From an uncultured Bacilli bacterium (GTDB lineage: Bacteria; Bacillota_I; Bacilli_A; RF39; UBA660): a DNA stretch of 64,000 nucleotides. The translations under genes and the position numbers were made by a program. Under the pieces are notes generated by a model. The model had not been told where the DNA came from and made no database searches. It saw only the letters and a program-made list of their open reading frames with translations. Positions 18,576 to 56,750 of the stretch are shown piece after piece. How positions within the stretch are numbered: position 1 is the first letter of the stretch; each line of letters begins with the position of its first letter. Location: positions 301,919 through 365,918 of the forward strand of contig CAKOLO010000002.1 of NCBI GenBank assembly GCA_934096235.1, written 5' to 3'.

Positions 18576-18594
18576 ACTTTTCCTCACAAAAAAA

Positions 18595-18664
18595 GTGCAC
18601 ACAGAATAGTGTTTAAGGCTGCTATCTTCCGATTCTGACCTGATTCGCATTCTTTCTGTTGCAC
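18595..18664 (-). ncRNA. ffs: small (4.5S-like, ~70 nt) signal recognition particle RNA
   Basis: Minus strand reads GUGCAACAGAAAGAAUGCGAAUCAGGUCAGAAUCGGAAGAUAGCAGCCUUAAACACUAUUCUGUGUGCAC followed by a U-run. It contains the conserved domain-IV core CAGGUCAG...CGGAAG...AGCAGCC and a closing helix GUGCA../..UGUGCAC. It sits next to tadA and dnaX, as scr does in Bacillus. Ends are approximate. Confidence 0.55.
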
Positions 18665-18711
18665 AAATAAATTATATATTATTTTAAATATTAAATCAAG
18701 TATTTTTATTA

Positions 18712-25612: not shown

Positions 25613-26731
25613 TTAGTAAGTTTTCATTGGTAAAATCAACTCAATTAATTCGTCATTTTCTGCTTCTTTTAAAATTATAGGACTTATTTCACCATTTAAT
25701 AAGATAAATATTTCTTCTTTATTAAATACTTTTAATGCTTCCATCATATATTTAACACTGAATGAAATTTTAATATCATTCTCTGTTTCATTTACAATTG
25801 TTATTTTATCTTTTCCTTTTCCTTCAGTACTTGCTGCTCTAATTATTAACTCTGTTCCTGAAACTTCCATATCTACTATATTTTTATCTTTAGATTGAGT
25901 TAATGATGATGCTGTATCAAGTAAACTGTATAAATCCTTTAAATTAGCTTTGATTTTATGTTTAAATTCTTTAGGAATTGAATTATCAGTGTTTGGATAA
26001 GTTCCATTTAATAATGAAGTTTGGAATATAATATTATTAAATTTAAATAGAGCTTTATTTGGAAATACATGAATTTCTAATTCAGATTCTTTATCGATTG
26101 TTTTAACTAATTCATTGATATTTCTTGCTGGTATTACCATATTAACATTTTCTGAATACATTTCATCCAACTTTATAGTTACTTTTGAAAGTCTATATGA
26201 ATCTGTGGCTACACATTCAAAGATATCTCCTAGTAATTTAATGTTAACACCTGTTAATAATGGTCTGCTCTCTTGAAGTGAACATGCAAAAGATGTTTTA
26301 TTAATTATTTCTTTGAATTTTTGACTATCTAATTTAATTGGATTTTTAACTTCTTCTAATTTAATATTAGGAAAGTCTTCTTGATTAAAGCATGGGAAGT
26401 CATATATTCCTCCACTTTCTGTTTTAAATGATACTTCATTATTTTCAAAGTTTTCTACTAAAATATTTGTGTTTTGTAGTTTGCTTACAGTACTTAATAA
26501 AGTTTTTCCATATATAATAGTACATCCAACTTCGTCAATACTTTTAATTTCTTTTTTATCAATAAATGTTTGTATTGTAATATCATTGTCAGTTGCTGTT
26601 AAATAAAGCCCTTCTTTTGTTAGTTCAAACTTGATACCATTAAGTACAGGAATTATATTTCTTGTAGATAATGCTTTACTTACACAATTTAATCCTTCCA
26701 TTAAAATATTTTTTTCTATTAACATTTTCAT
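25613..26731 (-). CDS. dnaN: DNA polymerase III beta sliding clamp
   Basis: 372 aa; three-domain clamp; directly downstream of dnaA. Confidence 0.9.
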   Translation of the reverse strand: MKMLIEKNILMEGLNCVSKALSTRNIIPVLNGIKFELTKEGLYLTATDNDITIQTFIDKKEIKSIDEVGCTIIYGKTLLSTVSKLQNTNILVENFENNEVSFKTESGGIYDFPCFNQEDFPNIKLEEVKNPIKLDSQKFKEIINKTSFACSLQESRPLLTGVNIKLLGDIFECVATDSYRLSKVTIKLDEMYSENVNMVIPARNINELVKTIDKESELEIHVFPNKALFKFNNIIFQTSLLNGTYPNTDNSIPKEFKHKIKANLKDLYSLLDTASSLTQSKDKNIVDMEVSGTELIIRAASTEGKGKDKITIVNETENDIKISFSVKYMMEALKVFNKEEIFILLNGEISPIILKEAENDELIELILPMKTY

Positions 26732-26876
26732 AATAATTTTTTCCTCCTTTTTCTTATTATATATATTATTTATTACTATTATAGAGTGTTAATAATGTTG
26801 ATAACTCATTTAATACTAGGTTTTATCTACGTATTATGTAAACTTATAATTGTTAAGATGTTTATAACTTGTGTGT

Positions 26877-28286
26877 TTATTCACAAATTTTTTCTTTTAG
26901 TATCTTAATTTCTTCTTGAAGTTTTGTATTTGTTTTTAGTTCATTTGAAATTTTTTCGTGTGAGTATATAACTGTTGAATGATCTCTACCTCCAAATTCT
27001 AAGCCTATTCTTTGTAAACTTTCTTCTGTCATTATTCTACTTAAATACATTGCTATCGCTCGAGCATCTGTAACATTTTTCTTTTTCATTTTTCCTTTTA
27101 GCATCGATGCCTCTAAATTGAAGTATTTGGCAACTATATCTATGATTTTAGCTACAGAATTTGTTCTATATACTGTCTTTGGTACAAATTCTTGTAGTGC
27201 ATCTTGTGCTATTTCTAGTGTTACTTCAGGAATATTAAATGCTGCTTTATATGCAACAATTCTTATAACAGCACCTTCTAAGTTTCTTATATCACTTCCA
27301 CAGTTACTTGCTATATAGTTAATAACATCTTCATTTATATCTAAATCATAGTCATTAATCATTATTTTATTCTTAATTATATTCTTTTTAAGCTCTAGTT
27401 CTGGTGGATTAATTGATTCTGTTAATCCCCATCTAAACCTTGTTTTAAGCCTATCTTCTAGGTATTTATAGTCATTTATTGATGTATCAGAAGCAATTAT
27501 TATTTGTTTTTCATTATCATATAATGTATTAAATGTGTTAGTAAATTCTATTTGTGATTTTGTTGCGTTTTCTAGAAATTGTATATCATCAATCATCAAT
27601 ACATCAACATTTCTATATTTTTCTCTAAAAGCTTCTAAATAACTAACATTGTTATCATATTTATTTTTAGCATTTATTATGGCTCTATAGTCATTTGTAA
27701 ATTGTTCTGCAGTAATGTAGAGAACTCTTTTGTCTGAGTGATTTACTATATAATTTCCTATTGCATGCATTAAATGTGTTTTACCTAATCCACTTTTTGC
27801 ATATATAAAATAAGGATTATATAATTTTCCTGGATTTTGTGCTACTGCTAATGCTGTTCCATATGCTAATTTATTGGAATCGCCAACGACAAATGTATCA
27901 AAAGTATATTTTGGGTTAAAATTGCTTATATATTTATAATTTGTTAAATCATTTGCTGTTGATTCTTCTATTTCTTCTTCAATTTCTTTTTTACTTTGTT
28001 TTTTCGGTTTTTCAGCCATTTTTTCAAGTTTTTTTATATCTTTTTCAAACATGTAAGATATTTCACATGTATCACTTGTTATATCGTTTAATATATCTTC
28101 TATTATTGAACTATAATTTTTAGTTATATTTTGTAATAAAAGCTCATTTGTAGGTACTATTATTATTATTTTACTATCTTCATAAGAATAAAGTTTTAGA
28201 TCCTTAAATATGTAGTTATAGGACATTAATGATACTTTATTTTTGATTTTCTCTAGAAATTTTTTCCAAATATCTTCAATATCCAT
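26877..28286 (-). CDS. dnaA: chromosomal replication initiator DnaA
   Basis: 469 aa; Walker A GKSGLGKTHL, sensor/box VII, C-terminal DNA-binding HTH (DHSTV). Confidence 0.95.
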   Translation of the reverse strand: MDIEDIWKKFLEKIKNKVSLMSYNYIFKDLKLYSYEDSKIIIIVPTNELLLQNITKNYSSIIEDILNDITSDTCEISYMFEKDIKKLEKMAEKPKKQSKKEIEEEIEESTANDLTNYKYISNFNPKYTFDTFVVGDSNKLAYGTALAVAQNPGKLYNPYFIYAKSGLGKTHLMHAIGNYIVNHSDKRVLYITAEQFTNDYRAIINAKNKYDNNVSYLEAFREKYRNVDVLMIDDIQFLENATKSQIEFTNTFNTLYDNEKQIIIASDTSINDYKYLEDRLKTRFRWGLTESINPPELELKKNIIKNKIMINDYDLDINEDVINYIASNCGSDIRNLEGAVIRIVAYKAAFNIPEVTLEIAQDALQEFVPKTVYRTNSVAKIIDIVAKYFNLEASMLKGKMKKKNVTDARAIAMYLSRIMTEESLQRIGLEFGGRDHSTVIYSHEKISNELKTNTKLQEEIKILKEKICE

Positions 28287-28438
28287 AACATATTCTCCTT
28301 TCTAATGTTGCTTTCTAACTAAAATTATAGTTCAACTTTTTTTAAAGTCAAATATAAAATTTATTTAACATTTATATTAACAACTTATTCACGATTTGTA
28401 AACAACTTTTTTTCTTTTATTTACTACTTTAATTTTAG

Positions 28439-28548
28439 TTATCCACAATATCAACAAATTTACAATTTAATTATTTTTTTAATTGTGGATAACTTGTTGA
28501 TAAGTTAACATAATATTGTGGATATAGTGTTGATAAGTTAACATAATA
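28439..28548. promoter_or_regulatory. oriC DnaA-box cluster
   Basis: Perfect DnaA boxes TTATCCACA (28439-28447) and TGTGGATAA (28484-28492); one-mismatch boxes at 28448, 28495, 28517 and 28528; a 20-bp direct repeat GTTGATAAGTTAACATAATA x2. A further one-mismatch box TGTTGATAA at 26796-26804 lies between dnaA and dnaN. Confidence 0.75.
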
Positions 28549-28612
28549 AATTTGAAAAATAAGTTTACATAATATTAAAAATAGTTTAAAATATATATGG
28601 AGATATGGGAAA

Positions 28613-30076
28613 ATGAATAAGAAAGAATTGTTAGAAAATTATTTAAAAAAATTATACAAAATATATATTGAAAAAGACTTTAATGAGTTTGTTAATACGA
28701 TACTAAGTTATAACATAAGGATTGGAGATTATAAGAAAGATATTTCATCAATTTCTAAAAAAATTTTTGACGAAATATTGGTTTTACTTCCTGAAAGTAA
28801 GGCGAAATTCTCATATAAAGAATTTACCAATTTTTATAAGATAAATATAATATATAAAGAATATAACGATCCAACGCCTAAAGTCATAATAGATGTTCCG
28901 GTGTTTATAGAAAACTATGAAAAAATAACAAATAATTTAATAAAATTTTTAATAGAAAATAAAATTAATTCTTATATTAAACTACAAAAAGTATCTCAAA
29001 ATGCTTTACTTGAAATTCGCGTTGATAATGAAGCAGAAGCTAAAAAGATAGTTAATCACTTTAAAACAAATAAAGAAATAGTTCAAGAAATAAAATCTAG
29101 GGTAGTTCCATTTTTACCTGAAGATAATCTACTAGGTTTTTCATATGAATATAAACCATATAATTTTAAAAATTTTTATTATGTTTGTTTATATGAATAT
29201 TTTTCAACACTTAAATCTATCGATAATTTAACTTTGGATGGTTTAGTTGCTTACATAGATAATAAATATAAAGTTGAAAGAAGACTAAATAAAAAGAGAA
29301 TGCTATTATCAATTTATAATAGTATTAGGGTTATAAATGAAGAAGATGATATTTATTCTATGTTTAGATATAATTCTGATATGAATATTGGCAGTATAAA
29401 TCCTAATGAGTTTGATTTAAAACTTGATGAAAATAAGATGATATTTTTTGTTAATAAATTGGATGAAAGAATAATTTCATATGGAAGTGAAGAATATTTG
29501 AATTTAGTTTATTCAAAATTTTATGATAATTTTATTAAAAGAGAAGAGAGTTCTACATATTATGGCTATTTTTATAATATTTTTAGTAAAATTTTATCAG
29601 ATGATTACAAAGATATTGATAAATTATTAGATTTTTCTAATATGCAAAAAGATTATATTTATACTTTAATGATGTTAATATCTAGTTTGTTCTTTGCATA
29701 TAAAAAAATGAATTTTTCATTAAATGATGTTTATTCTATATTAAAATATGTGCTATTTAAAAAATATAAACTAGAAATCAAAATAAAATCTTCAGAAGAA
29801 TATGAAGAAAAGAAAAATATATATATTTTTCCATTAAATATTGAATATGGAAATAAAGTCGTTGATTTAAAAGATAAATCTAAAATAACAGTTAAGGAAT
29901 ATTTTAGGCAAAATAAAATTGAGGATACCATTCCTTTAAATTCTCTTGTATATATGAAAGATGGAAAAATATTAAAGGGAGAAGATTTTTTAAGAGATTT
30001 ATATAAATATATTGGTTTATATGATTCATTTGAAGAATTGAGAAATTCACTAATAAGTTTAATAGAATTTAAATAA
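28613..30076 (+). CDS. hypothetical cytoplasmic protein (487 aa, K/Y/N-rich, no recognisable domain)
   Basis: Long uninterrupted ORF with an RBS-like GGAGATATGGG upstream; no TM segment or known motif. Confidence 0.5.
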   Translation: MNKKELLENYLKKLYKIYIEKDFNEFVNTILSYNIRIGDYKKDISSISKKIFDEILVLLPESKAKFSYKEFTNFYKINIIYKEYNDPTPKVIIDVPVFIENYEKITNNLIKFLIENKINSYIKLQKVSQNALLEIRVDNEAEAKKIVNHFKTNKEIVQEIKSRVVPFLPEDNLLGFSYEYKPYNFKNFYYVCLYEYFSTLKSIDNLTLDGLVAYIDNKYKVERRLNKKRMLLSIYNSIRVINEEDDIYSMFRYNSDMNIGSINPNEFDLKLDENKMIFFVNKLDERIISYGSEEYLNLVYSKFYDNFIKREESSTYYGYFYNIFSKILSDDYKDIDKLLDFSNMQKDYIYTLMMLISSLFFAYKKMNFSLNDVYSILKYVLFKKYKLEIKIKSSEEYEEKKNIYIFPLNIEYGNKVVDLKDKSKITVKEYFRQNKIEDTIPLNSLVYMKDGKILKGEDFLRDLYKYIGLYDSFEELRNSLISLIEFK

Positions 30077-30145
30077 ATAATTGACAATTTTAACTTGTTA
30101 GTATATAATCTAACTCAGTCGAGAGAAGAAATGGAGGTAAAATCA

Positions 30146-30268
30146 ATGAAAAGAACATTTCAACCTAATAATAGAAAGAAAGCAAAAACTTCAGGATTTT
30201 TAGCAAGAAAAGGTACTAATGTATTAAAATCTAGAAGAGCAAAAGGAAGAAAAGAATTATCAAAATAA
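30146..30268 (+). CDS. rpmH: 50S ribosomal protein L34
   Basis: Manual translation gives [40 protein letters not shown]; RBS GGAGGT; too short for the ORF track. Confidence 0.85.
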
Positions 30269-30323
30269 ATAAATTACTTTAAAATAAGTAATTTTTTTTA
30301 TATAATATTTTTTAGAGGCAGAT

Positions 30324-30644
30324 ATGAATAAAAAATTTATAGTAAGAAAAAATGAAGAAATTCAAAAAATAATAAAAAAATCTGACAAAAAATATAATAA
30401 ATTTTTTGTGATTTATTTTGCCAAAAATTCCTTAGGTTATAATAGATTTTGTATAAGTGTTGGTAAAAAGATTGGAAAAGCTCATACTAGAAACTTATAT
30501 AAAAGAAGAATTAAAGATATATTGATGAAAAATATTATTAATTCTTCAAATGATTATGTTATAATATTAAGGACTAGCATTTTAGGTAGTTCATATCAAG
30601 AAATAAGTGATGAATTACTTAGATTATTGAGAGGAGAAAAATAA
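30324..30644 (+). CDS. rnpA: RNase P protein component
   Basis: 106 aa basic protein directly after rpmH; RNR motif region KAHTRNLYKRRIK. Confidence 0.85.
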   Translation: MNKKFIVRKNEEIQKIIKKSDKKYNKFFVIYFAKNSLGYNRFCISVGKKIGKAHTRNLYKRRIKDILMKNIINSSNDYVIILRTSILGSSYQEISDELLRLLRGEK

Positions 30645-31561
30645 TGAAGAAAAAAATTGCTATTGTTCTTCTATTGATGTTAATACTTTGTGGATGCACT
30701 AAAAGATTTAACACTGAGGTAGATATTGATGGTAAGAAAGTAGAAAAAAGTTATGTTTCAAACATAATATGTAAGCCAGAAAGTACTGAACTAAAAGAAA
30801 CATATGAAAATAATAAAGATAATTTAATTGTTGATTATGATAGATTACCTGCATGTAAAGATTTAAAAATTAATTCTGGTGGTTATGAGGGGTTATGGAC
30901 ATCTTTGTTTGTTAAACCATTAGCTTGGGTTATCGTCAAAGTTGGATTAATTGTAAAAAATTATGGTGTAGCAATTATGATTGTTGGACTTATACTAAGA
31001 GCTATAATGTTCCCACTATCAAAAAAATCACTTAATATGAGTGAAAATATGCAAAAAGCTCAAAAAGATTTAAATAAGTTAGAAAAAAAATATAGAGGTA
31101 GAGAGGCTGATAGGGATGCTATGATGGCCAAGAGTCAAGAAATGCTACTTATATATAAAAAATATGATATTAGTCCATTATCAGGATGTTTATTCTCATT
31201 CTTACAATTACCAATATTCTTTGCATTCTTAGAAGCAGTTTATAGAGTACCAGCATTTTTTGAAAAGAATTTCTTAGTATTTAATTTAGGTACTACACCA
31301 CTTGAAGGATTTAAAGCAGGCAATTATTGGTATATAATTCTTGTGTTATTAATTATTGGTGCAACATATTTTTCATTTAAAAATATGAATGTAAGTGGTG
31401 ATGCTGAACAGGCTAAACAAATGAAAATGATGAGTACATTTATGATTGTATTTATATCAATTGTATCATTTAGTTTACCAACATCTATCGCATTATATTG
31501 GATAGTATCAAATGGATTTACAGTTGTTCAAAATTTGATATTAAAGAAAGGTAAGTTGTAG
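30644..31561 (+). CDS. yidC: membrane protein insertase YidC/Oxa1 family (lipoprotein type)
   Basis: Lipobox LILCGC, multi-TM, rnpA-yidC-jag order. Confidence 0.85.
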   Translation: MKKKIAIVLLLMLILCGCTKRFNTEVDIDGKKVEKSYVSNIICKPESTELKETYENNKDNLIVDYDRLPACKDLKINSGGYEGLWTSLFVKPLAWVIVKVGLIVKNYGVAIMIVGLILRAIMFPLSKKSLNMSENMQKAQKDLNKLEKKYRGREADRDAMMAKSQEMLLIYKKYDISPLSGCLFSFLQLPIFFAFLEAVYRVPAFFEKNFLVFNLGTTPLEGFKAGNYWYIILVLLIIGATYFSFKNMNVSGDAEQAKQMKMMSTFMIVFISIVSFSLPTSIALYWIVSNGFTVVQNLILKKGKL

Positions 31562-31565
31562 TATT

Positions 31566-32189
31566 ATGGAGAAGTATAAATTTCAAGCTAAAAGTGAAGA
31601 TGGTCTTTTAGATAAAGCATTAAACGAATTAAAATTAAAAGAAGAAGATGTAATTACTAGATCATATGAAGAAAAAGGTGGATTATTTAGTGGAAAAAAA
31701 TATACACTTGAGGTAATCAAAATTAGTGATGTAGCTGAAGTAGGAAAAGAAATAATTAAAGAATTATTATCTTCTATGGGAGTAAATGCTAATGTTGAAA
31801 CTAAAATTAGAGATGGACAAATTTATTATGGATTGCATTCTCAAAATAATTCATTATTAATTGGAAAGAATGGTCATATACTTGATTCAATTCAAACTTA
31901 TGTGAGACAAGCAGTATTAAATACTATCGATTTATATGTAAATATTACAATTGATGTAGAGGGTTATAAAGAAAAACAAAACTATTTCTTAGAAAAGAAA
32001 GTTAAGAAAATAGCTAGAGATGTAACTTTATCAAAGGTTGATGTTAAATTAGATCCGATGAATTCTTATGAAAGAAAAGTTGTTCATTCAGCACTTCAAG
32101 GATTTAAATATATAAAGACTGAAAGTGAAGGAGAAGAACCAAATAGATGTGTAGTTATTAAGTACACTGAGAATAAAGAAGATGAATAG
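31566..32189 (+). CDS. jag: Jag/KhpB RNA-binding protein (KH + R3H)
   Basis: Conserved position after yidC; R3H-like C-terminus (ERKVVHSAL). Confidence 0.75.
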   Translation: MEKYKFQAKSEDGLLDKALNELKLKEEDVITRSYEEKGGLFSGKKYTLEVIKISDVAEVGKEIIKELLSSMGVNANVETKIRDGQIYYGLHSQNNSLLIGKNGHILDSIQTYVRQAVLNTIDLYVNITIDVEGYKEKQNYFLEKKVKKIARDVTLSKVDVKLDPMNSYERKVVHSALQGFKYIKTESEGEEPNRCVVIKYTENKEDE

Positions 32190-32268
32190 TATGCTAAATG
32201 CATACTTTTATTTTACATATTATTCATAATGTGTTATAATCTAGCGTGAAGAAAAAGGAGACTAATAT

Positions 32269-44995: not shown

Positions 44996-45016
44996 TATTT
45001 ATTAGGTGATTAATTC

Positions 45017-45628
45017 ATGAAAAAAAATAAATTACTAGTTATTTTTTTCTTGTCTTGTATTTTCTCATATATAATTTATAACTATACTATGGAAAATAGA
45101 ATTAATATTTTAATACTCGGAGATAATTATTTAATTAATAGTAATTATAAAACTTATGATAAATATTTACTTGATAAATATTATAATCTTAATAATTTAA
45201 ACAAGTTATTCACATCTGAAAATATTACTTATAAAGATATTATAAAAAATATTAAAGATAATTATTATGTGTATTCAAAAGATAAAAAAGTATATTTAAA
45301 TCCATTAATAGCTAGTGCTGATATAATAATAGTGAATGCTAATAATGAAAAATATTTCGAAAAATGTAATAAGAGTGAAAGTATTATAAAAACATATTAT
45401 GAAGATATATCTAATGATATAAATGATTTAAAAAATATTATTAAGAAGATAAGTCCTGCTATGGTTATAGTTATTTCTAACTATTGTTATAATCAAAATT
45501 ATAAATTAAATGATGGTGATATTAATTTAAATCAAATATATTATAAATATCAAAATTCTAAAAGTAAAAGATTAAATGATAAAGTTAATTATCAAATATA
45601 TAATAAAATAGTTGAATTTGTAAGTTAA
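45017..45628 (+). CDS. hypothetical membrane-anchored protein
   Basis: N-terminal TM; N/Y/K-rich; no recognised domain. Confidence 0.35.
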   Translation: MKKNKLLVIFFLSCIFSYIIYNYTMENRINILILGDNYLINSNYKTYDKYLLDKYYNLNNLNKLFTSENITYKDIIKNIKDNYYVYSKDKKVYLNPLIASADIIIVNANNEKYFEKCNKSESIIKTYYEDISNDINDLKNIIKKISPAMVIVISNYCYNQNYKLNDGDINLNQIYYKYQNSKSKRLNDKVNYQIYNKIVEFVS

Positions 45629-45956: not shown

Positions 45957-46232
45957 GTGAAAAGTATGAATATAAATGGACAAGAAGTAAATATAAATGA
46001 CTTATATGATAAGAAATATATGCATAAAGAAATAAAAAAAGGTATATACTTATCTGAATATCAAATAGAAGTACTTAATAGATATGGAATAGATCCTATG
46101 AAGTGTGGTTCTATAAATGATATTATGTTTCTCATAGATGAAGTACTTGAAGATGATGCGGATGCTGATGATCTAGATAATATATCTAGAGAAATAAGTG
46201 AGTTTAATTATTATGCGAATACTAACAAGTAA
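45957..46232 (+). CDS. hypothetical small acidic protein
   Basis: ORF only. Confidence 0.3.
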   Translation: MKSMNINGQEVNINDLYDKKYMHKEIKKGIYLSEYQIEVLNRYGIDPMKCGSINDIMFLIDEVLEDDADADDLDNISREISEFNYYANTNK

Positions 46233-46267
46233 TTGAAAAATTACTTGTTTTTTGATATCATATTACT

Positions 46268-47059
46268 ATGAATAATAAGAATATAATATATATAATTGGT
46301 GTCTTTATAATAGGTATAATATTAACTTTATTATATATTTTTAAATATGATAAAATTAGTGATAATATACTAGATAAAAATTGGTATAGATATAATTATA
46401 TAAATGGATATTATGATGTGTTTAATATAAATGAATATAAAATATCATATTATAGGCCTAGTAGTGAAAACTTTACTAATCAATATGATAAATGCAGTAA
46501 TTATAGATATAATAAAAAAAATAAAACTATAATACTAGATTGCAATAAGGAAATAGTAATAAAAAGTAGTGTTAATAATAAATTAACATTATTAATAGAT
46601 AATGAAGAAAATGTATTTTTTAATAATATAGATGATTCTTTAAATTATGAATTTAATAAGTTTTATGGAAAAAGTATGTCAGAATATAAGAAATCAGAGA
46701 GTCAAGTTGTTGATTCTATAAAATTACCTATTAGTAGTTTGATGAATATTATAAAAGAAAAAGAAGATGCTAAAATAATATTTATGGGTAATAAATGTAG
46801 TAGTGTTGACTGTTTAACTTCTTATGATGTTATTGAAAAATGGTTAAGTGTATCTACCAATACATATTTTATTAATAGTGATGAACTAAGCAATAATGTA
46901 ACTTTATTATTAAATAAAATAAATAAAAATTTTTCAAAAGATTTGAACTTTTATAATGATGCTTATCCTAGAGTAATGATAACTAATGGAGGGAATATAA
47001 TTGATTCATACTTAATTAAATGTCATGGTTTTAACTGTAGTTCTTTCTATAATAAATAA
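46268..47059 (+). CDS. hypothetical membrane-anchored, Cys-containing protein
   Basis: N-terminal TM; no recognised domain. Confidence 0.35.
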   Translation: MNNKNIIYIIGVFIIGIILTLLYIFKYDKISDNILDKNWYRYNYINGYYDVFNINEYKISYYRPSSENFTNQYDKCSNYRYNKKNKTIILDCNKEIVIKSSVNNKLTLLIDNEENVFFNNIDDSLNYEFNKFYGKSMSEYKKSESQVVDSIKLPISSLMNIIKEKEDAKIIFMGNKCSSVDCLTSYDVIEKWLSVSTNTYFINSDELSNNVTLLLNKINKNFSKDLNFYNDAYPRVMITNGGNIIDSYLIKCHGFNCSSFYNK

Positions 47060-49199: not shown

Positions 49200-50720
49200 A
49201 TGGCAAAATATATATGTGCTAAATGTGGTTATATAGTTGAGACTGAAAAGTTGTCTAATGACTATACTTGCCCAATGTGTGGGGGTTTTAAAGATGACTT
49301 CAAGTTAGTAACTAATGATATATTTGATCAAGATGATTTAGATTCTGTTATAGATTCTGTAGTTGAAGAAGCATTAGAACTTAAAATAAGTAAAATTGTT
49401 AATGATACAGTTGAAGATAAGAAAGTTAGAATAAGTCAATATAATCCTGCAATTGTTAGAATACCGGAGAAATGTATTAATTGTGGTCAATGTAAAAAAA
49501 CTTGTGAAAAGGTAGTAAATCTTTCTTATGATTTAAATGTATGTAAAAATCCTATATGTTTAGGATGTGGTCAATGTATATTGAATTGTCCTACTGGTGC
49601 CATTGTACCAAAATATTGTTATAAAGAGGTTAAAGAAATAATTAATACTAATGAGAAGGTTGTTGTTGCTATGATAGCTCCTGCAGTGAGAGTTTCAATG
49701 GGTGAAAATTTTGGTATGGCTCCTGGTGATAATGTTGAAGGAAAACTTGTTACGGCTCTTAAAAAAGTAGGATTTGATTATGTTTTTGATACTGCATTTG
49801 GTGCTGATTTAACTATTATGGAGGAGGTTGCTGAATTTGCTGCTAGACTTACTAATAAGGGACCAATGCCTCAATTTACTAGTTGCTGTCCTGCTTGGGT
49901 TAAATATGCTGAAGTGTATCATCCAGAATTATTAGATAATCTATCTACTTGTAAGAGTCCAATTGGTATGCAATGTGCAATTATAAAAGAGTTTTTTTCT
50001 AAAGAAAAGAATATTGACCCATCAAAAATAATTACCGTGGCTATTACACCTTGTACTTCTAAAAAGATGGAAGCAAGGGAATATACAATAAATATAGATT
50101 ATGTTATGACTGCAAGTGAATTATCTATTTTACTTAAAGAAGAGGATTTAAATTTAAATAGTTTGAATGATAGTGAATATGATAAACTTTTAGGAGAAGG
50201 TAGTGGTGCAGGAGTAATATTTGGTAATTCTGGTGGAGTTACTGAATCTGTTATTCGTACTCTTTATAGAATAATGACTAAAACTAATTTAAAGAAGGAT
50301 CAATTAGTTTTTAATGATTTAAGAGGCTTTGATGGAATAAAAGAAGCAACTATAGAAATACACAATTATAAGCTTAAAGTGGCGGTTGTACAACAACTTG
50401 AAAATCTTGAAGAGTTATTAAAAGATGATAGATATAAAAAGTATCACTTTATAGAAGTAATGAATTGTAAAGGTGGATGTATTGGTGGTGGTGGACAACC
50501 TTTATGCCAAATAACTCAATTAGATAAAATAAGGGAGCAAAGATCTAAAGGATTATATAATATAGACTCTAAAAGAGCAGTAAGATTTGCTCATGATAAT
50601 AAAGAATTAAAATTATTATATAAAAACTATTTAAAAAAACCACTTAGTGAAGAGAGTTTTAAACTATTACATACTTCGTATAGTGATAAGAGCTATTTAT
50701 TAAGGGGTGAAGAAAAATAA
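49200..50720 (+). CDS. [FeFe]-hydrogenase catalytic subunit with N-terminal rubredoxin-like domain
   Basis: H-cluster motifs L1 FTSCCPAW, L2 ITPCTSKKME, L3 EVMNCKGGCIGGGGQP; two 4Fe-4S ferredoxin CxxCxxCxxxC motifs; N-terminal CAKCGY...CPMCGG rubredoxin-type knuckles. Confidence 0.8.
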   Translation: MAKYICAKCGYIVETEKLSNDYTCPMCGGFKDDFKLVTNDIFDQDDLDSVIDSVVEEALELKISKIVNDTVEDKKVRISQYNPAIVRIPEKCINCGQCKKTCEKVVNLSYDLNVCKNPICLGCGQCILNCPTGAIVPKYCYKEVKEIINTNEKVVVAMIAPAVRVSMGENFGMAPGDNVEGKLVTALKKVGFDYVFDTAFGADLTIMEEVAEFAARLTNKGPMPQFTSCCPAWVKYAEVYHPELLDNLSTCKSPIGMQCAIIKEFFSKEKNIDPSKIITVAITPCTSKKMEAREYTINIDYVMTASELSILLKEEDLNLNSLNDSEYDKLLGEGSGAGVIFGNSGGVTESVIRTLYRIMTKTNLKKDQLVFNDLRGFDGIKEATIEIHNYKLKVAVVQQLENLEELLKDDRYKKYHFIEVMNCKGGCIGGGGQPLCQITQLDKIREQRSKGLYNIDSKRAVRFAHDNKELKLLYKNYLKKPLSEESFKLLHTSYSDKSYLLRGEEK

Positions 50721-51306
50721 TTGTTTAATTACAATTATTTTTATTTTTTTAATAAAATATATTGACACATTATAAATTATTTGATAATATATATTTGTCC
50801 AATAGATAATTAAATGTTATATCTATTATATAATGATTTATTTAAGTTTAATTATTTTTATAAACTTATATAATAATATAAATGGTTTAATTATATTAGT
50901 GAAAAAGTCTATAAATTTTTTACTTATTTATATTGGATATAATAATATTATTTTTCAATTATATGTTCTTAATTAGTATTAATTTACTAACTTAATTATG
51001 TATCTATCTTATTAATAATATCTTATATCAAAATAATATAAATAATAAAAATATCTTATTAATTTAAGAAATAGATGTCTTATCTACTAAGGACAAATGT
51101 TATAACGTTGAGAAAGTAAAACTCAAAATGATAAGAAATTATGCTAAATACTGATAATATTTAGAAGTATTTATATTAATTTAAATATTAATATAAATGA
51201 TTCATAATTTATTTTCGGAAACTCGAAACAATCTTGTTTTATCAGAACGGGTTGTTTTTTGTTTGTTTAAGAATGTGAAAAGTGATATTATAATTATGGT
51301 GAATAT

Positions 51307-51693
51307 ATGAAGCATATTAAGAAGTATTTAAGATTTTATATAATGTTTGGTGTTACTGCTTTAATTTCAATTTATTTAGTATTTTGGGGACCTAGTTCTA
51401 AGTATTTAGCAGTATATAAAGATAATATGACTATAGAGTATGATATGAATTCTAAAGAAGGGTATTCTTGGAGTTATGAGTCTAGTAATGATAATATTAA
51501 ACTTTCTAGTAATGAAGATGATAAATGGGTCTTTGAACCTAATAAAAATGGTAATACAACCTTAACTTTTTATTATAAGAATGGTGAAAATACATTATAC
51601 AAGATAATATATGGTATTAAAGTTTTAGGTAATAAAATCATTTGGACTAAAGGAGAAGGTATTGGCCTTACTAGCTATCCTAATCCTTATTAA
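51307..51693 (+). CDS. small membrane-anchored/secreted protein, possibly chagasin-like (I42) protease inhibitor
   Basis: N-terminal TM/signal; EGYSWSY and GNTTLTFYYKNG resemble the NPTTGYxW / G..L.F.Y pattern of the I42 family (tentative). Confidence 0.35.
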   Translation: MKHIKKYLRFYIMFGVTALISIYLVFWGPSSKYLAVYKDNMTIEYDMNSKEGYSWSYESSNDNIKLSSNEDDKWVFEPNKNGNTTLTFYYKNGENTLYKIIYGIKVLGNKIIWTKGEGIGLTSYPNPY

Positions 51694-51768
51694 AATATAC
51701 ATATTAATTTAAATATATGTATATTTTTTATTGATTTTGTGATAAGATATATTTAAGGAGTGTAAAGT

Positions 51769-52854
51769 ATGGAACCATATAAAGCTAAAAAATTACCTTT
51801 TAATTATGAACTTGATAACTCTATTATAAAACTTTTATGTGATGCGAAAGAAGCATATGGAGAATATAAAGGTTTTCTTAAGAGTATGACATTTGATTAT
51901 AAATCCTTTTTAGAATCTGCTTTTATAATTGATACATATTATTCTTTTAAAATTGATAATGCTAAGATTACAAAAAATGATATGTTTTTAATGCCTTATA
52001 AGAATAAAAATAATACTGTTATACAATTTAATAATATTAAGATGGCTTTATTGTCAGGTATTTCTTATGCTAGTAAGAGTGGATTTTCTATTGATGTATT
52101 TAATAAAATAAATAAAGCTCTTTTGACTAATTGTAAGAAGGATAATTCTACTAAAGGTAGTGGACATTTAAGAAAGACTCAAACATATATATTAAAGCCT
52201 GGTTTAGCTGGATCTAGTGTTTCATTTGTACCACCTTTGTATAATGAATTAAATGGTTATATGAAGAATTTATGTGATTATATGAATGAACCTGGTGAAC
52301 CTGATTTTATTGCTTTAGCTATAACACATTATCAGTATGAAAAACTACATCCATATTTAGCTGGTAATGGTAAAATTGGTAGACTTACTATACCTGTACA
52401 ATTATCTTTTTATAAAAAAGAACCCCCAATACTATTTATATCAGAAGCAATAGATAATTTAAAAAATACGTATTTCACTTTGTTAAGTGATGAAAATGAT
52501 GAGAAGTTTCCAAAATTTATAAAATTCATTTTAGAATGTATTATTAGTCAATGCAATATAAATATTAAAAGAATTAAAAAACTTAATAAAATATATACTA
52601 AAGATTTAGAAGATTTTAAAATTACTATAGGTGGAAGTACAATTTATAAAGCATATCCTGTTATAGCTAAGAGAATAGTATTTACTACTAATGATATAGT
52701 AGAAGAATGTAAATTACATATTAATTCTGTTAATAAAGTTCTAAACAAATTAGTAGAACAGGGATACTTAGTTAAAGAAAAAAAGAAAGGTACTAATAGA
52801 GTAACTTTCACTTATACTAATATGTATGATATATTAACTAATACTTCTAATTAA
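51769..52854 (+). CDS. Fic/Doc-family protein
   Basis: Fic motif HPYLAGNGKIGR (consensus HPFx[DE]GNGR) at roughly residue 190. Confidence 0.75.
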   Translation: MEPYKAKKLPFNYELDNSIIKLLCDAKEAYGEYKGFLKSMTFDYKSFLESAFIIDTYYSFKIDNAKITKNDMFLMPYKNKNNTVIQFNNIKMALLSGISYASKSGFSIDVFNKINKALLTNCKKDNSTKGSGHLRKTQTYILKPGLAGSSVSFVPPLYNELNGYMKNLCDYMNEPGEPDFIALAITHYQYEKLHPYLAGNGKIGRLTIPVQLSFYKKEPPILFISEAIDNLKNTYFTLLSDENDEKFPKFIKFILECIISQCNINIKRIKKLNKIYTKDLEDFKITIGGSTIYKAYPVIAKRIVFTTNDIVEECKLHINSVNKVLNKLVEQGYLVKEKKKGTNRVTFTYTNMYDILTNTSN

Positions 52855-53364
52855 ATTTATATAATAATGCACATTATTACTTGTTATATCTTCAAAGTAA
52901 ATATGTGCTTTTTTGTTTTCATTAATTAGGGTACAAATATTATTAAAGTCTAGTTTATTTAACTTAATATATTTATTTAAAAAATCTATATTTTTAGAGT
53001 ATTTATACATAAACATATTAATGAATTCTCTATGATAAAATTCTATATTACTATAATAGTATTTATCTGATAACAATATTTTATTATATTTATTATTTAG
53101 TGTTTCACTTAGAATATATCTTATTTTTAATTCACTAATATTTAATTTTTCTTTTATGAATGAAATATAGTTATCTAAATTAAATATAAATTGTTCTTGA
53201 AGAGAAATAAGTTTTTCTTTATGGATAAGATGAGAAGTAACTATTATACTAGAATCTTTTATTTTACTCATTATATCATCTAGTAGTTTATCATTTATAA
53301 AACTTATTATATCAGAACTATTGTTAATATATTTTTTTAATAAATAATCATTATAGTTCATCAT
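52834..53364 (-). CDS. hypothetical protein, translationally coupled to the upstream XRE regulator
   Basis: Strong GGAGG RBS inside the 3' end of the XRE gene; 14-bp overlap; no recognisable domain. Confidence 0.4.
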   Translation of the reverse strand: MMNYNDYLLKKYINNSSDIISFINDKLLDDIMSKIKDSSIIVTSHLIHKEKLISLQEQFIFNLDNYISFIKEKLNISELKIRYILSETLNNKYNKILLSDKYYYSNIEFYHREFINMFMYKYSKNIDFLNKYIKLNKLDFNNICTLINENKKAHIYFEDITSNNVHYYINLIRSIS

Positions 53365-53599
53365 TATCCTCCATAAATTTACTTATAGGTGTATTTAAAA
53401 CTATAGATATTTTATATAAATTAGTTATACTTATACCAGTTTTACATTTATTACTTTCTAAATTACTTATTAAAGAAACTGAGACATTGATTAATTCAGC
53501 AAGTTTTTCTTGTGTTATTTTTTTACCATTTAATATAGTTTTATTTCTATATTTCTTTATATTTTTACCAATTATCTTATTTAATTTATCTTGATTCAT
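53351..53599 (-). CDS. XRE-family HTH transcriptional regulator (paralogue 1)
   Basis: HTH_3-like QEKLAELINVSVSLISNLE; shares the C-terminal motif NLYKISIVLNTPISKF with paralogues 2 and 3. Confidence 0.6.
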   Translation of the reverse strand: MNQDKLNKIIGKNIKKYRNKTILNGKKITQEKLAELINVSVSLISNLESNKCKTGISITNLYKISIVLNTPISKFMEDNDEL

Positions 53600-53700
53600 A
53601 GTTCACCTAAAACAATTATAGAATAAATATCATTAAATGTATAGTACTACATTACATAATTAAATGTTAAAACAATGTAAAATATTACTTAGGTGAAAAG

Positions 53701-53961
53701 ATGACTAAGTTTAAGAGAGATTTTAATTTTGATGAAAATATAATTAAGACAATAGCATATAATGTTATTAAATATAGAAAGTTAAGTGGTATAACTCAAG
53801 AACAGCTTGCGATAGATATAGGTGTATCTCCTGAATTTATTAGAAAGTTTGAGAGTACTAGAGGAAGTGAAGGATTATCACTTATGTCTTTATATAAAAT
53901 ATCAGTTGTTCTTAATGTATCTATTGATAAATTTTTTGAATCAATAGAAGTTAACGATTAA
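53701..53961 (+). CDS. XRE-family HTH transcriptional regulator (paralogue 2)
   Basis: QEQLAIDIGVSPEFIRKFE HTH and SLYKISVVLNVSIDKF; divergent from paralogue 1 with a 100-bp spacer containing inverted repeats (TTACAT...ATGTAA). Confidence 0.6.
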   Translation: MTKFKRDFNFDENIIKTIAYNVIKYRKLSGITQEQLAIDIGVSPEFIRKFESTRGSEGLSLMSLYKISVVLNVSIDKFFESIEVND

Positions 53962-54214
53962 TAAAAAACTTTTCTATTGGGACATTTAATATTAGACTTA
54001 TCTTGTATAAATTATATATACTTATACCTTGGTAAGTCTTTTTACTTTCAAGATTACCTATTAATGACGTAGATACATTTGCTAGTTCTGCTAAATGTTC
54101 TTGTGTTAAATCTTTTACATTTAAGCTATATAGTTTTCTATAATATTTAATGTTTTTTCCTATAATAGTATAAATTTCTTTTTCATCTTTAAAATTGAAT
54201 GTATCTTTCATCAT
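53951..54214 (-). CDS. XRE-family HTH transcriptional regulator (paralogue 3)
   Basis: QEHLAELANVSTSLIGNLE and NLYKISLILNVPIEKF; convergent with paralogue 2. Confidence 0.6.
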   Translation of the reverse strand: MMKDTFNFKDEKEIYTIIGKNIKYYRKLYSLNVKDLTQEHLAELANVSTSLIGNLESKKTYQGISIYNLYKISLILNVPIEKFFINR

Positions 54215-54376
54215 TAAACACCTAGTAATATTTTCCCATTATTTGGAAATTTTGGCCATTTACTAAGAATGATAAAAATACACTTGTAGTGATAATTTAT
54301 AAAAAAATACGATTTTTCTTGAAAAATGCTTTAAAATAGTGTATTATTAAGTGCGTATCTAAGAGGGGATGAGATT

Positions 54377-56179
54377 ATGGAAAAAATTATTAACTTTGCT
54401 GTTGTTGCTCATGTAGATGCTGGTAAGAGTACTTTAGTAGATGCATTATTAAAACAAAATGGTGTTTTTAGAGAAAATGAGCAAGTTGTTGACTGTGTAA
54501 TGGATAGTGGAGATTTAGAACGTGAACGTGGTATTACTATTACTGCTAAAAACTGTTCTATAAAATATAAAGGCATTAAAATGAATATAGTTGATACTCC
54601 AGGACATGCTGATTTTTCTAGTGAAATAGAGAGAATAATTAAAACAGTAGATACTGTAGTATTATTAGTAGATTCAGCTGAAGGACCAATGCCTCAAACT
54701 AGATTTGTATTAAAAGAAGCATTAAAATTTGGACTTAGACCAATACTATTTATTAATAAAATAGATAAAAAAGATGCTCGTGCTGAAGAAGTAGTTAATA
54801 TGACTTTTGATTTATTTTGTGAATTAGGTGCAACTAATGAACAATTAGATTTTAAGATTATATATGGTATTGCTAAAGAAGGAATTGCTAAGTATGAAGA
54901 AAATGATGATAGTAAAGATATTACACCACTTCTTGATACAATTATAGAAACTACTAAACCATTTGAAGGAAATGAAAATGATCCTTTACAATTACAAATA
55001 TCATCACTTGATTATGATGATTATATTGGTAGACTAGGTATTGGTAGAATTAATAAAGGTAAAATTAAAGTTGGTGAAACAGTAGCAATATCTAAAAATA
55101 ATGGAGAACTTACAAAAGAAAGAATTACTAAGATATTTGTTAATGAAGGAATTAAGAGAAGAGAAGTAACTGAAGCTTACTATGGTGATATAGTTATAGT
55201 TGCTGGTTGTCCTGAAATATCTATAGGAGATACAATTTGTGATGTTAATCATGTAGACCCTCTACCAAAAATTGAAATAGAAAAACCTACACTATCAATG
55301 AATTTTATGGTTAATAATAGTCCATTTGCAGGTAAAGTTGGTAAGTTTGTTACATCTAGACATTTAAGAGATAGATTAATGGCTGAACTTGAACGTAATG
55401 TTGGACTTGAAGTTGAAGAGTTACCAAGTAGTGATGGATTTAAAGTATCTGGTCGTGGTGAATTACACTTATCAATATTAATTGAAAATATGAGAAGAGA
55501 AGGTTACGAATTAGGCGTTTCTAAACCTGAAGTTATTTTCCATGAAATAGATGGTGTTAAGTGTGAACCATATGAAAGAGTAGTAATTACTGTACCTAAT
55601 GATTATTCTGGAAATGTAATTAGTGATTTGAGTGAGAGAAAAGGTACTATGGAAATAATGGAACCTGCTGAAGATAATTATGTTAGACTTGAGTTTGTTG
55701 TTCCTACAAGAGGTTTAATAGGATATAGAAGTAACTTTATTACTAATACTAAGGGTGAAGGTATTATGGTTCGTAGTTTTGAAGATTATAGACCATATGC
55801 AGGAGAAATATCTGGACGTAAGAATGGCGTACTTGTATCTATGGAAAGTGGTAAGGCATTTGGATATGCATTATATAACTTATTAGATAGAGGTACTATG
55901 ATAATAGAACCATCTACTGAAGTATATTCTGGTATGATAGTTGGTATTAATAATAGAGAAAATGATTTAAATGTTAATCCATGTAAGAATAAAGAATTCT
56001 CTAATACACGTTCATCTGGTAGTGATGAAGCTATAGTACTTCCAAGACCTAGAACATTTACATTAGAAGAAGCATTAGAATTTATAGAGAAAGATGAACT
56101 TGTTGAAGTTACACCTGATGCGATAAGATTACGTAAGAAAATACTTGATGAAAAAGAAAGATTTAGAAATAATAGATAA
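54377..56179 (+). CDS. typA: translational GTPase TypA/BipA
   Basis: G1 AHVDAGKST, G3 DTPGHADF, NKID; 600 aa. Confidence 0.95.
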   Translation: MEKIINFAVVAHVDAGKSTLVDALLKQNGVFRENEQVVDCVMDSGDLERERGITITAKNCSIKYKGIKMNIVDTPGHADFSSEIERIIKTVDTVVLLVDSAEGPMPQTRFVLKEALKFGLRPILFINKIDKKDARAEEVVNMTFDLFCELGATNEQLDFKIIYGIAKEGIAKYEENDDSKDITPLLDTIIETTKPFEGNENDPLQLQISSLDYDDYIGRLGIGRINKGKIKVGETVAISKNNGELTKERITKIFVNEGIKRREVTEAYYGDIVIVAGCPEISIGDTICDVNHVDPLPKIEIEKPTLSMNFMVNNSPFAGKVGKFVTSRHLRDRLMAELERNVGLEVEELPSSDGFKVSGRGELHLSILIENMRREGYELGVSKPEVIFHEIDGVKCEPYERVVITVPNDYSGNVISDLSERKGTMEIMEPAEDNYVRLEFVVPTRGLIGYRSNFITNTKGEGIMVRSFEDYRPYAGEISGRKNGVLVSMESGKAFGYALYNLLDRGTMIIEPSTEVYSGMIVGINNRENDLNVNPCKNKEFSNTRSSGSDEAIVLPRPRTFTLEEALEFIEKDELVEVTPDAIRLRKKILDEKERFRNNR

Positions 56180-56222: not shown

Positions 56223-56750
56223 CTATTTAGTTTTAAATTTACTTAATACTTTTGCGGCTACGAATATTATTGAGTCGCTATTTTTAATTGCTTGTTTTTT
56301 TCCTATAGCTTTGCCACCTACTGTTAGTGATGAGATAATTGAACTTACTAATAGAGTAACAATTACTGTAGATACATTTAACTTGGTAGATATATTTATT
56401 GCAAGCATTGCTCCTATAGAACCACTTACTATACCACATATATCTCCGATAACATCATTACATATACTTGCGATTGTACTTGAGTTTTTAACTAGATAAA
56501 CTCCTTCTTTTGAACCTTTTATTTTTTTAGCACTTTTCGCATGAAATGATGCTTCGTTAGCTGTTAAGACAGCTGTACCTATAATATCAAATAAAATACC
56601 TATACCAATAAATATTACACATAGCACCATTAAAAGTATTGTATTATTGAATTTTGATATTAGATAGTTAGATGCACTACTAAAAATTAAAGCTATAAAA
56701 AAAGTCATTAAAAATGCCTTTAGAATCCAATTATCTTTTTTCATTTTCAA
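56223..56750 (-). CDS. hypothetical integral membrane protein
   Basis: Four predicted TM segments; RBS AAAGGGAG. Confidence 0.45.
   Translation of the reverse strand: MKMKKDNWILKAFLMTFFIALIFSSASNYLISKFNNTILLMVLCVIFIGIGILFDIIGTAVLTANEASFHAKSAKKIKGSKEGVYLVKNSSTIASICNDVIGDICGIVSGSIGAMLAINISTKLNVSTVIVTLLVSSIISSLTVGGKAIGKKQAIKNSDSIIFVAAKVLSKFKTK

Follow-up and report, generated by a model that had tools for sequence, protein, structure and literature searches.

The locus considered here raises the question whether an extremely AT-rich block of genes is an accessory islet or a resident part of the chromosome that carries it. The window, i.e. the whole stretch of DNA analyzed, comprises 64,000 nucleotides (nt) of an uncultured Bacilli bacterium (GTDB lineage Bacteria; Bacillota_I; Bacilli_A; RF39; UBA660; assembly GCA_934096235.1, contig CAKOLO010000002.1, forward strand positions 301,919 to 365,918). 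The block is located at 50721-54214 of the window between the genes of an Fe-only hydrogenase and TypA. A preliminary description made from the sequence alone had regarded it as an accessory islet reminiscent of toxin/immunity or phase-variable modules. Based on our analysis we would rather consider it, with a probability of about 0.6, a conserved chromosomal module of a lineage of uncultured gut Bacilli with reduced genomes. This module consists of two parts: a structured leader RNA with the genes of an I42-like and a Fic protein, and a cassette of XRE regulators. The earlier observations were largely right in their parts, whereas their interpretation was only partly supported. All six open reading frames (ORFs) described before were recovered between both flanking genes (coordinates of the window, taken from the ORF list):

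49200-50720, Fe-only hydrogenase gene, left flank
51307-51693, plus strand, I42-like protein of 128 amino acids
51769-52854, plus strand, Fic protein of 361 amino acids
52834-53364, minus strand, U176, a lineage-restricted helical protein of 176 amino acids and second gene of the XRE1 operon
53351-53599, minus strand, XRE1, 82 amino acids, HTH_3 domain, overlapping the start of U176 by 14 nt
53701-53961, plus strand, XRE2, 86 amino acids, HTH_3 domain, the most conserved gene in the block
53951-54214, minus strand, XRE3, 87 amino acids, HTH_3 domain, overlapping the convergent XRE2 by 11 nt and transcribed divergently from typA
54377-56179, typA/bipA, right flank

To compare the locus between species, one genome per species was scanned with the hydrogenase as query, followed by tblastn with all proteins of the block. 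About 30 species-level metagenome-assembled genomes (MAGs), labelled as uncultured Bacilli, Mollicutes, Tenericutes, Clostridium sp. CAG:524 or CAG:1000, carried the six genes between hydrogenase and typA in unchanged order. Across these MAGs the identity of the hydrogenase went down to 42-63% and that of TypA down to 77%. Leaving aside the loci L041 (Fic, U176 and XRE1 interrupted) and L043 (without XRE1 and XRE3), identities to the window were 81-99% for XRE2, 65-97% for XRE3, 62-96% for XRE1, 59-94% for Fic, 35-89% for the I42-like protein and 35-80% for U176. No locus with both flanking genes but without Fic was present among the loci surveyed. Furthermore, an identical Fic protein occurred on at least 21 metagenome contigs from human gut and other samples, and the six of them listed share the same neighbours.

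Purifying selection acts on all six genes. The ratio of nonsynonymous to synonymous substitution rates (dN/dS) against the closest species was 0.016 for XRE2, 0.044 for XRE1 and XRE3, 0.079 for Fic, 0.10 for the I42-like protein and 0.18 for U176, so that XRE2 evolves more slowly than TypA (0.026). Neither a tRNA gene nor an integrase nor flanking repeats were found at the block, and the absence of integrase and phage genes noted earlier was confirmed. The strain comparison suggested in the preliminary description therefore shows, at the level of about 30 species, the conserved content of a core locus, and of the arguments for an accessory islet only the low GC content fits. Members of RF39, to which these organisms appear to belong, are common, uncultured bacteria of the human gut with strongly reduced genomes (PMC6784871). 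A block of 3.5 kb retained in such genomes is probably important for the cell.

The compositionally extreme nature of the block was confirmed. Its GC content of 20.6%, compared to a window mean of 25.6% (standard deviation 2.1), is the lowest of any 3.5-kb segment in the window, with the ORF-free 586 bp at its left end, U176 (16%) and XRE1 (18.5%) as main contributors. In very AT-rich genomes low GC content alone is a poor sign of horizontal acquisition.

The two parts of the module are separable. Among 48 loci in which both the Fic and the typA gene are complete, the full module was present in 33. In 11 loci Fic is followed by typA after approximately 85 nt, with neither U176 nor any XRE gene. 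Three loci carried the XRE genes without U176, and a single one had U176 and XRE2 only. Since 11 of the 48 loci retain Fic without U176 and the XREs, these neighbours are not an obligatory antitoxin, which speaks against the toxin/immunity module proposed earlier. Phase variation, also proposed, found no support either: neither repeat tracts nor invertible elements capable of causing it were seen.

Two loci deviate in other ways. At L041 (12544-14378; from CP091739.1, a complete chromosome of 1.53 Mb) Fic, U176 and XRE1 were each recovered in two tblastn pieces, which frameshifts due to assembly errors or true pseudogenisation could explain; XRE2, XRE3 and the leader are intact. At L043 (946-6420) hydrogenase and leader are separated by about 4.4 kb of additional DNA, and XRE1 and XRE3 are gone while U176 and XRE2 stay.

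The stretch of 586 bp between hydrogenase and I42-like gene (50721-51306) had been called a gene desert. It is indeed free of ORFs and has a GC content of 15.2%, equally low values being reached in only 0.09% of 586-nt windows, but it is not empty. The spacers contain a predicted promoter and a structured leader RNA including the PGK motif:

50719-50750, plus strand, hydrogenase terminator, a hairpin AATTGT/ACAATT followed by a T-run, as read from the sequence
50762-50790, plus strand, predicted leader promoter with invariant TTGACA, 17 nt, TAATAT and a TG before the -10 box
50795-51261, plus strand, structured leader RNA of about 465 nt, from the 24-species alignment A2, RNAalifold and covariation
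51072-51164, plus strand, PGK RNA motif (RF03040) with helices P1-P3, from the Rfam covariance model
51225-51261, plus strand, predicted intrinsic terminator of the leader with a covarying stem, an apical TTATCAG and a T-run

In the alignment of the orthologous spacers a hairpin with a T/A-run was present at the same position as the hydrogenase terminator. The TTGACA box was invariant over the 18 aligned species and matched by a regular expression in 30 loci. A scan with consensus promoters and terminators was uninformative in such AT-rich DNA (43 sites versus 42 expected).

The leader starts with a TTGTCC box, which is invariant and lies at the predicted 5' end. It is followed by hairpin A (approximately 50960-50998), the PGK motif, the closing helix J, the AT-rich hairpin P4, a AAACTCGAA box and the terminator. 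A further conserved block, TTAGTGAAAAA, is located between the TTGTCC box and the PGK motif. The match to the PGK model covered all positions (1-92 of 92) with 82 bits, well above the gathering score of 50.8 (E 1.7e-10), and nhmmer detected the motif in every orthologous spacer. RNAalifold on alignment A2 independently proposed the hairpin at approximately 50960-50998, the AT hairpin, the terminator and a long-range helix TGTCC (50796-50800)/GGACA (51091-51095); the 5' box, about 295 nt upstream of the PGK motif, can thereby pair with the internal loop of the motif. Additionally, the apical TTATCAG of the terminator (UUAUCAG) is complementary to the P3 loop CTGATAA (CUGAUAA).

The structure tested comprised 10 helices with 80 pairs, P1-P3 of Rfam included, and slid pairing partners and 500 shuffles served as controls. 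In total, 97.3% of the alignment cells were paired, compared to 37-45% in the slid controls, and 21 pairs showed compensatory changes, compared to 3-7. None of the 500 shuffles reached the observed values. Helix J (AATTATG/CATAATT), within which P3 and P4 lie, was supported by covariation, as were hairpin A, P4 and the terminator helix, the last with five compensatorily changed pairs. P1 was paired in 99% and changed compensatorily in three sequences (CTTATC/GATAAG to CTAATC/GATTAG), P2 was paired in 97%, and P3 was paired in 100% but invariant.

Two further relations involving the leader were considered and discarded. An alternative in which the AAACUCGAA box pairs with P2 on its 5' side showed no covariation, because units of the pgk type vary P2 (TAGAG/CTCTA, GGAG/CTCC) while, by eye, the box stays CTCG. 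The direct repeat D2 (50786-50826 and 53636-53676, with ATAATTAAATGTTA in common), a candidate XRE operator at the leader promoter, is unconserved at both places and therefore attributed to chance.

The PGK RNA is named for its position upstream of the phosphoglycerate kinase gene, an association which gives the family its name but does not define its structure. The motif stems from a survey of candidate structured RNAs (Weinberg et al. 2017, PMC5737381), whose main text, as far as accessible, does not discuss it; no other paper on the motif was found. The RNA of the window resembles the Rfam family in its full-length match with P1-P3, in its position upstream of protein genes on the same strand and in its occurrence in gut or rumen metagenomes. 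In contrast to the family name, the genes downstream are those of the I42-like and Fic proteins and not pgk, and the motif is embedded in a leader of about 465 nt. Furthermore, the Rfam model of 92 nt lacks helix J, P4, the AAACUCGAA box and the terminator with TTATCAG, all of which were found here in every gene context.

These contexts emerged from a metagenome scan with a pattern of the PGK core, which gave at least 132 units on at least 120 contigs; the following counts refer to the matches listed, with downstream ORFs sought on the strand of the unit only. About 59 units were located upstream of I42-like and/or Fic genes. Another 52 directly preceded pgk (18; Pfam PGK 1e-126), an LtaS-like gene encoding a multi-pass membrane protein of 679 amino acids with a sulfatase domain (12), murG (11) or genes for unknown proteins of 117 (6) and 215 amino acids (5). 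The remaining 21 were single cases, among them HU and a YceD-like protein (one each), or had no nearby ORF or too little sequence. At least seven gene classes follow PGK units. Nine loci covering these contexts all passed the Rfam gathering score, and the orthologous copies together with those of other contexts scored 52.7-89.6 bits. Downstream of the core, every context has AAACTCGAA and a hairpin with TTATCAG and a T-run. TTATCAG with T-run was present after the core in 109 of 115 units compared to 3 of 93 control windows, and helix J was fully complementary, by many different sequence pairs, in 54% of 109 distinct units compared to 10% of shuffled controls. The 5' TGTCC box, approximately 300-750 nt upstream, was specific to the I42/Fic copies.

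The arrangement relative to the genes is also informative. In the five loci L016, L018, L021, L023 and L034 the ribosome-binding site and start of the I42-like gene follow the terminator T-run within approximately 17-25 nt, which leaves no room for a promoter. Where I42-like and Fic genes are separated (L026, L027 and several metagenome contigs), the order is unit, I42, unit, Fic, and the second unit has its own promoter and 5' box (TTGACA..TGTCC). In L030, L031 and L042, which lack the I42-like gene, the unit precedes Fic.

On related contigs of low-GC gut and rumen metagenomes, PGK units with the same terminator before pgk, murG, LtaS-like, I42-like and Fic genes look like a multi-copy, riboswitch-like attenuator, and they would place the I42-like and Fic proteins in one regulon with genes of glycolysis and envelope synthesis. 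A structured domain, an intrinsic terminator directly upstream of an ORF and recurrence before several genes, the structural features of an attenuator, are all present. Hence, judged from its sequence and position, the most probable role of the leader is that of a terminator-based attenuator in cis, and it is a riboswitch candidate. The PGK motif, so far only a catalogued candidate RNA, is placed by these data in named genomes with a terminator-type expression platform, and the list of genes behind it (pgk, murG, LtaS-like, I42-like, Fic and two unknown proteins) narrows the search for a ligand.

Some units are duplicated in another manner. Double PGK units with both motifs 300-470 nt apart, a tandem arrangement as found in some riboswitch classes, were observed upstream of a single gene for the unknown 215-amino-acid protein, pgk or an LtaS-like protein (L158, 6804-7363; L121, 2528-2933; L079, 2489-2878; and L182). 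The 215-amino-acid protein (L158, L178, L182) and the 117-amino-acid "CPNYY" protein (L103, L133, L138, L174, L177, L187) have no Pfam match, are found consistently behind PGK units and presumably belong to the same regulon.

A second conserved element precedes Fic itself. It is listed here together with the elements of the XRE cassette discussed below:

51695-51729, plus strand, invariant hairpin ATATACATAT/ATATGTATAT with T-run, from the spacer alignment
51740-51748, plus strand, conserved extended -10 box TGnTAWWAT about 20 nt before the ribosome-binding site of Fic, a putative promoter
53638-53657, invariant element TGTATAGTAnnnCATTACAT in a 28-species alignment of the divergent XRE1/XRE2 spacer, a putative operator
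54215-54376, XRE3/typA spacer of 162 bp with the invariant blocks GCCATTATTT, AACCATTTACT, ATGATAA and GTGATAA, from the spacer alignment

Hairpin and extended -10 box are retained in species without the I42-like gene and in species without the XRE module, and the hairpin of L027 shows compensatory changes in its inner pairs. Since hairpin, T-run and extended -10 box are located directly upstream of Fic in all aligned species, Fic may have its own promoter, insulated from the leader.

The I42-like protein passed the threshold of Pfam Inhibitor_I42 (PF09394; 29.6 bits, gathering score 27.2). An N-terminal transmembrane helix is followed by an 8-strand beta sandwich as in the chagasin fold, and the protein had thus been correctly recognized as membrane-anchored and chagasin-like. 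In chagasin the protease is bound by the loops L2 (NPTTG), L4 (GxGG) and L6 (RPW). The NPTTG motif is missing here, and the matching loop D-M-N-S-K-E-G-Y-S-W varies among the orthologues with only G-Y-x-W-like residues persisting. The protein also differs from the chagasin family (MEROPS I42; EhICP2, 3M86; chagasin, 2H7W) by its N-terminal membrane anchor and by a conserved C-terminal motif GL..[YF]PNPY of its own. The chagasin-like fold is therefore supported, while protease inhibition is only putative.

The Fic protein matched Pfam Fic (PF02661) with 44.9 bits against a gathering score of 24, so that its assignment to the family held, and had weak winged-helix matches; Pfam Fic_N was not detected in it. 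The PADLOC model SoFic aligned over the full length (8e-59, positions 8-359 of 361). The NCBIfam SoFic equivalog aligned to residues 8-360 with only 69.8 bits compared to a cut-off of 550. The closest PDB entries were SoFic (3EQX, 3ZCN) and 7CB8, and a match to PHROG 5978 (1e-45) indicates relatives in phages. The best 120 database homologues were all at least 61% identical, came from the same kind of MAGs and are labelled "Fic family protein". Length, domain order (N-terminal helical region, Fic core, C-terminal winged helix) and full-length match are those of the class II protein SoFic, and the C-terminal winged helix is nearly invariant among the orthologues.

The catalytic motif had been called intact. 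The catalytic His194 is indeed present, and His, Asn and the last Arg of the SoFic motif are kept, but the AMPylation consensus is not. The active site of the window is HPYLAGNGKIGR (H194-PYLAGNGKIG-R205), aligned onto HPFIDGNGRTGR of SoFic, and the approximately 30 orthologues share H-P-Y-x-[A/T/S]-[G/E/N]-N-G-[K/L]-x-G-R. Compared to the canonical HxFx(D/E)GNGRxxR, Phe is replaced by Tyr, position 5 is Ala, Thr or Ser but never Asp or Glu, and position 9 is Lys or Leu instead of Arg.

A search for the inhibitory-helix motif (S/T)xxxE(G/N), suggested earlier for Fic and its neighbours, had a negative outcome. In Fic an N-terminal segment S-F-K-[I/L]-D-[N/G] (S59-F-K-I-D63-N in the window) follows the pattern except for Asp in place of Glu in all orthologues, again a difference from SoFic. 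This pattern and the match range to 4x2e (profile 56-227 to chain 28-194) suggest that the segment S59-D63 lies on an inhibitory helix; phmmer of the N-terminal region alone against PDB gave no match. In U176 the only match to the motif, T-L-I-N-E-N, is not conserved in alignment A3 and was rejected. Altered active site and Asp for the inhibitory Glu together suggest that chemistry or regulation are probably unlike canonical AMPylation. A universally conserved Fic with these changes lends itself well to testing whether Fic proteins can have a chemistry other than AMPylation or a different regulation. In contrast to the patchy SoFic its gene is core and syntenic, and it is located downstream of a riboswitch-like leader.

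The three XRE proteins are ordinary members of HTH_3 (45.1, 34.0 and 29.3 bits, gathering score 23). The C-terminal LYKIS.. motif previously regarded as distinctive is part of this Pfam match and represents the last helix of the domain. Sequence identity amounts to 47% between XRE1 and XRE2 and to 62% between XRE1 and XRE3. The gene-family expansion postulated before is real but ancient: each XRE forms its own orthologue group, and the duplications therefore predate the divergence of all species sampled. No further paralogues of XRE, U176, Fic or I42 were found within the window. Weak matches of the XREs were obtained to antitoxin models of the HipB/Y4mF type and to the PADLOC models HTH_VI, control-protein and capH.

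The divergent and convergent arrangement of the XRE genes is as described, but spacers of about 100 bp apply to the XRE1/XRE2 pair only, since XRE2 and XRE3 overlap and the XRE3/typA spacer is larger. In the XRE1/XRE2 spacer, TGTATAGTAnnnCATTACAT forms an imperfect palindrome across the back-to-back -35 boxes of both genes. A promoter scan gave TATACA-17-TATAAT on the minus strand. The TTACAT/ATGTAA inverted repeats previously described as operator-like exist in the window. They were rejected as operator because the ATGTAA arm varies among species, and it coincides with the extended -10 box of XRE2; what is conserved is TGTATAGTA..CATTACAT. In the XRE3/typA spacer, TTGAAA-17-TGTATTAT is the predicted typA promoter.

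The translational coupling of the 176-amino-acid gene to an XRE gene was confirmed by the overlap of XRE1 and U176. U176 had no match in Pfam, NCBIfam, PADLOC or PHROGs. Structure prediction, also suggested earlier, gave a confident fold without match in PDB. An exhaustive profile search identified 93 relatives, some of which are 355-384 amino acids long and match U176 in their N-terminal 130 residues or so. In one long relative the C-terminal part passed the threshold of Pfam WapI, an immunity protein. In three independent contexts such a long protein is divergently paired with an XRE protein of 141-153 amino acids, so that XRE and U176-like proteins form a recurrent unit, and one of these pairs adjoins a serine recombinase; an origin of the unit from a mobile element is possible. 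Thus, U176 adds a confidently predicted new fold which recurs beside XRE regulators.

Two other origins of U176 were rejected. For a phage origin, a scan of IMG/VR viral contigs with alignment A3 found no relatives. Remote matches of about 360 amino acids had suggested a fragment of a Fic paralogue, but these proteins have no Fic domain, and one has the WapI-like C-terminal domain.

With switches of the CI/Cro and C-protein type and type II toxin-antitoxin operons that have an XRE antitoxin, the cassette shares small HTH_3 proteins, a divergent pair about 100 bp apart, a palindromic element over the -35 boxes and the translational coupling of one XRE to a downstream gene. It differs from all of these by the lack of a phage, a restriction-modification system or a recognisable toxin, and by three ancient paralogues at a fixed site, the slow evolution of XRE2 and a partner without known fold.

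Taken together, we propose the following course of events. A promoter of the sigma-70 type at 50762-50790 would drive the leader, whose core is the PGK motif; helix J encloses P3 and a variable hairpin, and the conserved AAACUCGAA box and the predicted terminator come next. As a riboswitch-like attenuator of transcription in cis, the leader would permit expression of the membrane-anchored I42-like protein by read-through; Fic would be expressed directly or by continued read-through, and both would share a regulon with glycolysis (pgk) and envelope synthesis (murG, LtaS-like). Fic, of SoFic (class II) architecture, would have probably non-canonical chemistry or regulation. The back-to-back promoters of XRE1 and XRE2 with their common palindrome could form a switch of auto- and cross-repression as in CI/Cro or C-protein systems. 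XRE3 would share its highly conserved control region with typA, and U176 would be a new-fold partner of the XRE regulators.

The data establish synteny and conservation, purifying selection, the structure of the RNA, the domains and the variant motifs, whereas attenuation, the logic of the regulon, the operators and the activity of Fic are proposals. Several points weigh against them. The promoter and the 5' end are predicted, as are termination and read-through. The helix TGTCC/GGACA, P3 and the complementarity of P3 loop and terminator loop are invariant, so that covariation neither supports nor refutes them, and the fold of minimum free energy places TTATCAG partly within the upper terminator stem. 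A promoter of its own may weaken the control of Fic by the PGK unit in the species of the window. The conserved blocks in the XRE spacers could be promoter elements only. Finally, the full-length PADLOC match would also fit an anti-phage role of Fic.

Such a role is the core of one alternative: a single-gene anti-phage defence of the SoFic type, fixed in the lineage as a cluster with the XREs as CapH-like or C-protein-like controllers. A defence function of SoFic through AMPylation has been described (PMC12249575), and the full-length PADLOC match, the PHROG match and the weak matches of the XREs to HTH_VI, control-protein and capH would agree with this. But defence genes are usually patchy and located in variable islands, whereas this Fic is syntenic and universal in its clade, scores far below the equivalog cut-off and has catalytic motif and inhibitory Glu altered in every orthologue. 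It also stands behind the same RNA element as the housekeeping genes pgk, murG and ltaS-like, and we consider the defence role rather unlikely. Still less probable is the horizontally acquired islet in which a Fic toxin is checked by XRE and U176 or switched by phase variation. For EcSofic toxicity and its neutralisation by a small downstream protein, AS1, have been reported (PMC12249575). This precedent, the lowest GC content of the window, the overlapping XRE1-U176 bicistron, the HipB/Y4mF-type matches and the fusion of U176-like domains to a WapI-like domain in distant relatives could be taken in its favour. An overlapping bicistron as in type II toxin-antitoxin systems is present; U176 matches no toxin family and no known fold, and three loci have XRE1 without U176. 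The fixed site in about 30 species lacking integrase, tRNA and flanking repeats, the 11 loci with Fic alone, the purifying selection on all genes, a catalytic motif without acidic residue and first Arg, the unconserved TLINEN of U176 and the absence of repeat tracts or invertible segments all argue against it.

The other alternative concerns the RNA only. The PGK transcript might be a free-standing small or medium-sized RNA gene which acts in trans or binds a protein and merely neighbours the I42-like and Fic genes. The strong conserved promoter, an efficient-looking terminator, a -10-like box between terminator and I42-like gene in the window and some other species, and the extended -10 box of Fic would be expected of such a gene, and its invariant loops and two AAACUC boxes could serve as binding sites of a protein. 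We regard it as improbable, since several species have no space for a promoter between terminator and I42 start and the unit is duplicated where I42 and Fic are separated. In addition, among the listed units with enough downstream sequence, an ORF starts approximately 100-670 nt from the PGK core on the strand of the unit, to which the search was confined, in 56 of the 59 outside the I42/Fic context and in all I42/Fic units, and these ORFs belong to a limited set of gene families.

A more far-reaching interpretation is put forward only tentatively. The PGK RNA might be an orphan riboswitch class with an architecture larger than the Rfam model (with J, P4, the AAACUCGAA box and a terminator apex pairing with the P3 loop), by which one signal would couple pgk, murG, LtaS-like, I42-like and Fic genes in a lineage-wide regulon, with U176 as a new-fold family partnering XREs in several Bacillota lineages.

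Some features of the surrounding window may be mentioned. The N-terminus of the hydrogenase (49200-49310) contains a rubredoxin-like module Cys-x2-Cys ... Cys-x2-Cys with a weak match to RUBY_RBDX, and a response-regulator/histidine-kinase pair 5' of it is syntenic in most loci of the lineage. On the other side, an OLE RNA (RF01071; 56763-57244, minus strand, 207 bits) is followed by a membrane ORF of 175 amino acids (56223-56750, minus strand), probably OapA, and this pair is located 3' of typA in many orthologous loci. The OLE RNA measures only 482 nt compared to 616 model positions, in agreement with the finding that OLE RNAs without P7-P8 ("variant 2") are common in RF39 (PMC11332333). Like the labels of the MAGs, this suggests that the organism belongs to the order RF39.

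The block is located approximately 23 kb from the oriC region (25613-32200). This region contains dnaN (25613-26731) and dnaA (26877-28286), both on the minus strand, and a cluster of DnaA boxes (28439-28536), followed on the plus strand by rnpA, yidC, jag and mnmE; the GC skew switches sign at about 28 kb. Two more stretches, 45000-45600 and 46200-46800, have a GC content of 16-18%, comparable to the AT-richness of the leader region. A signal recognition particle RNA of the small bacterial type (18589-18668, minus strand, 48 bits, gathering score 40) adjoins another of the rare 586-nt windows that are equally AT-rich.

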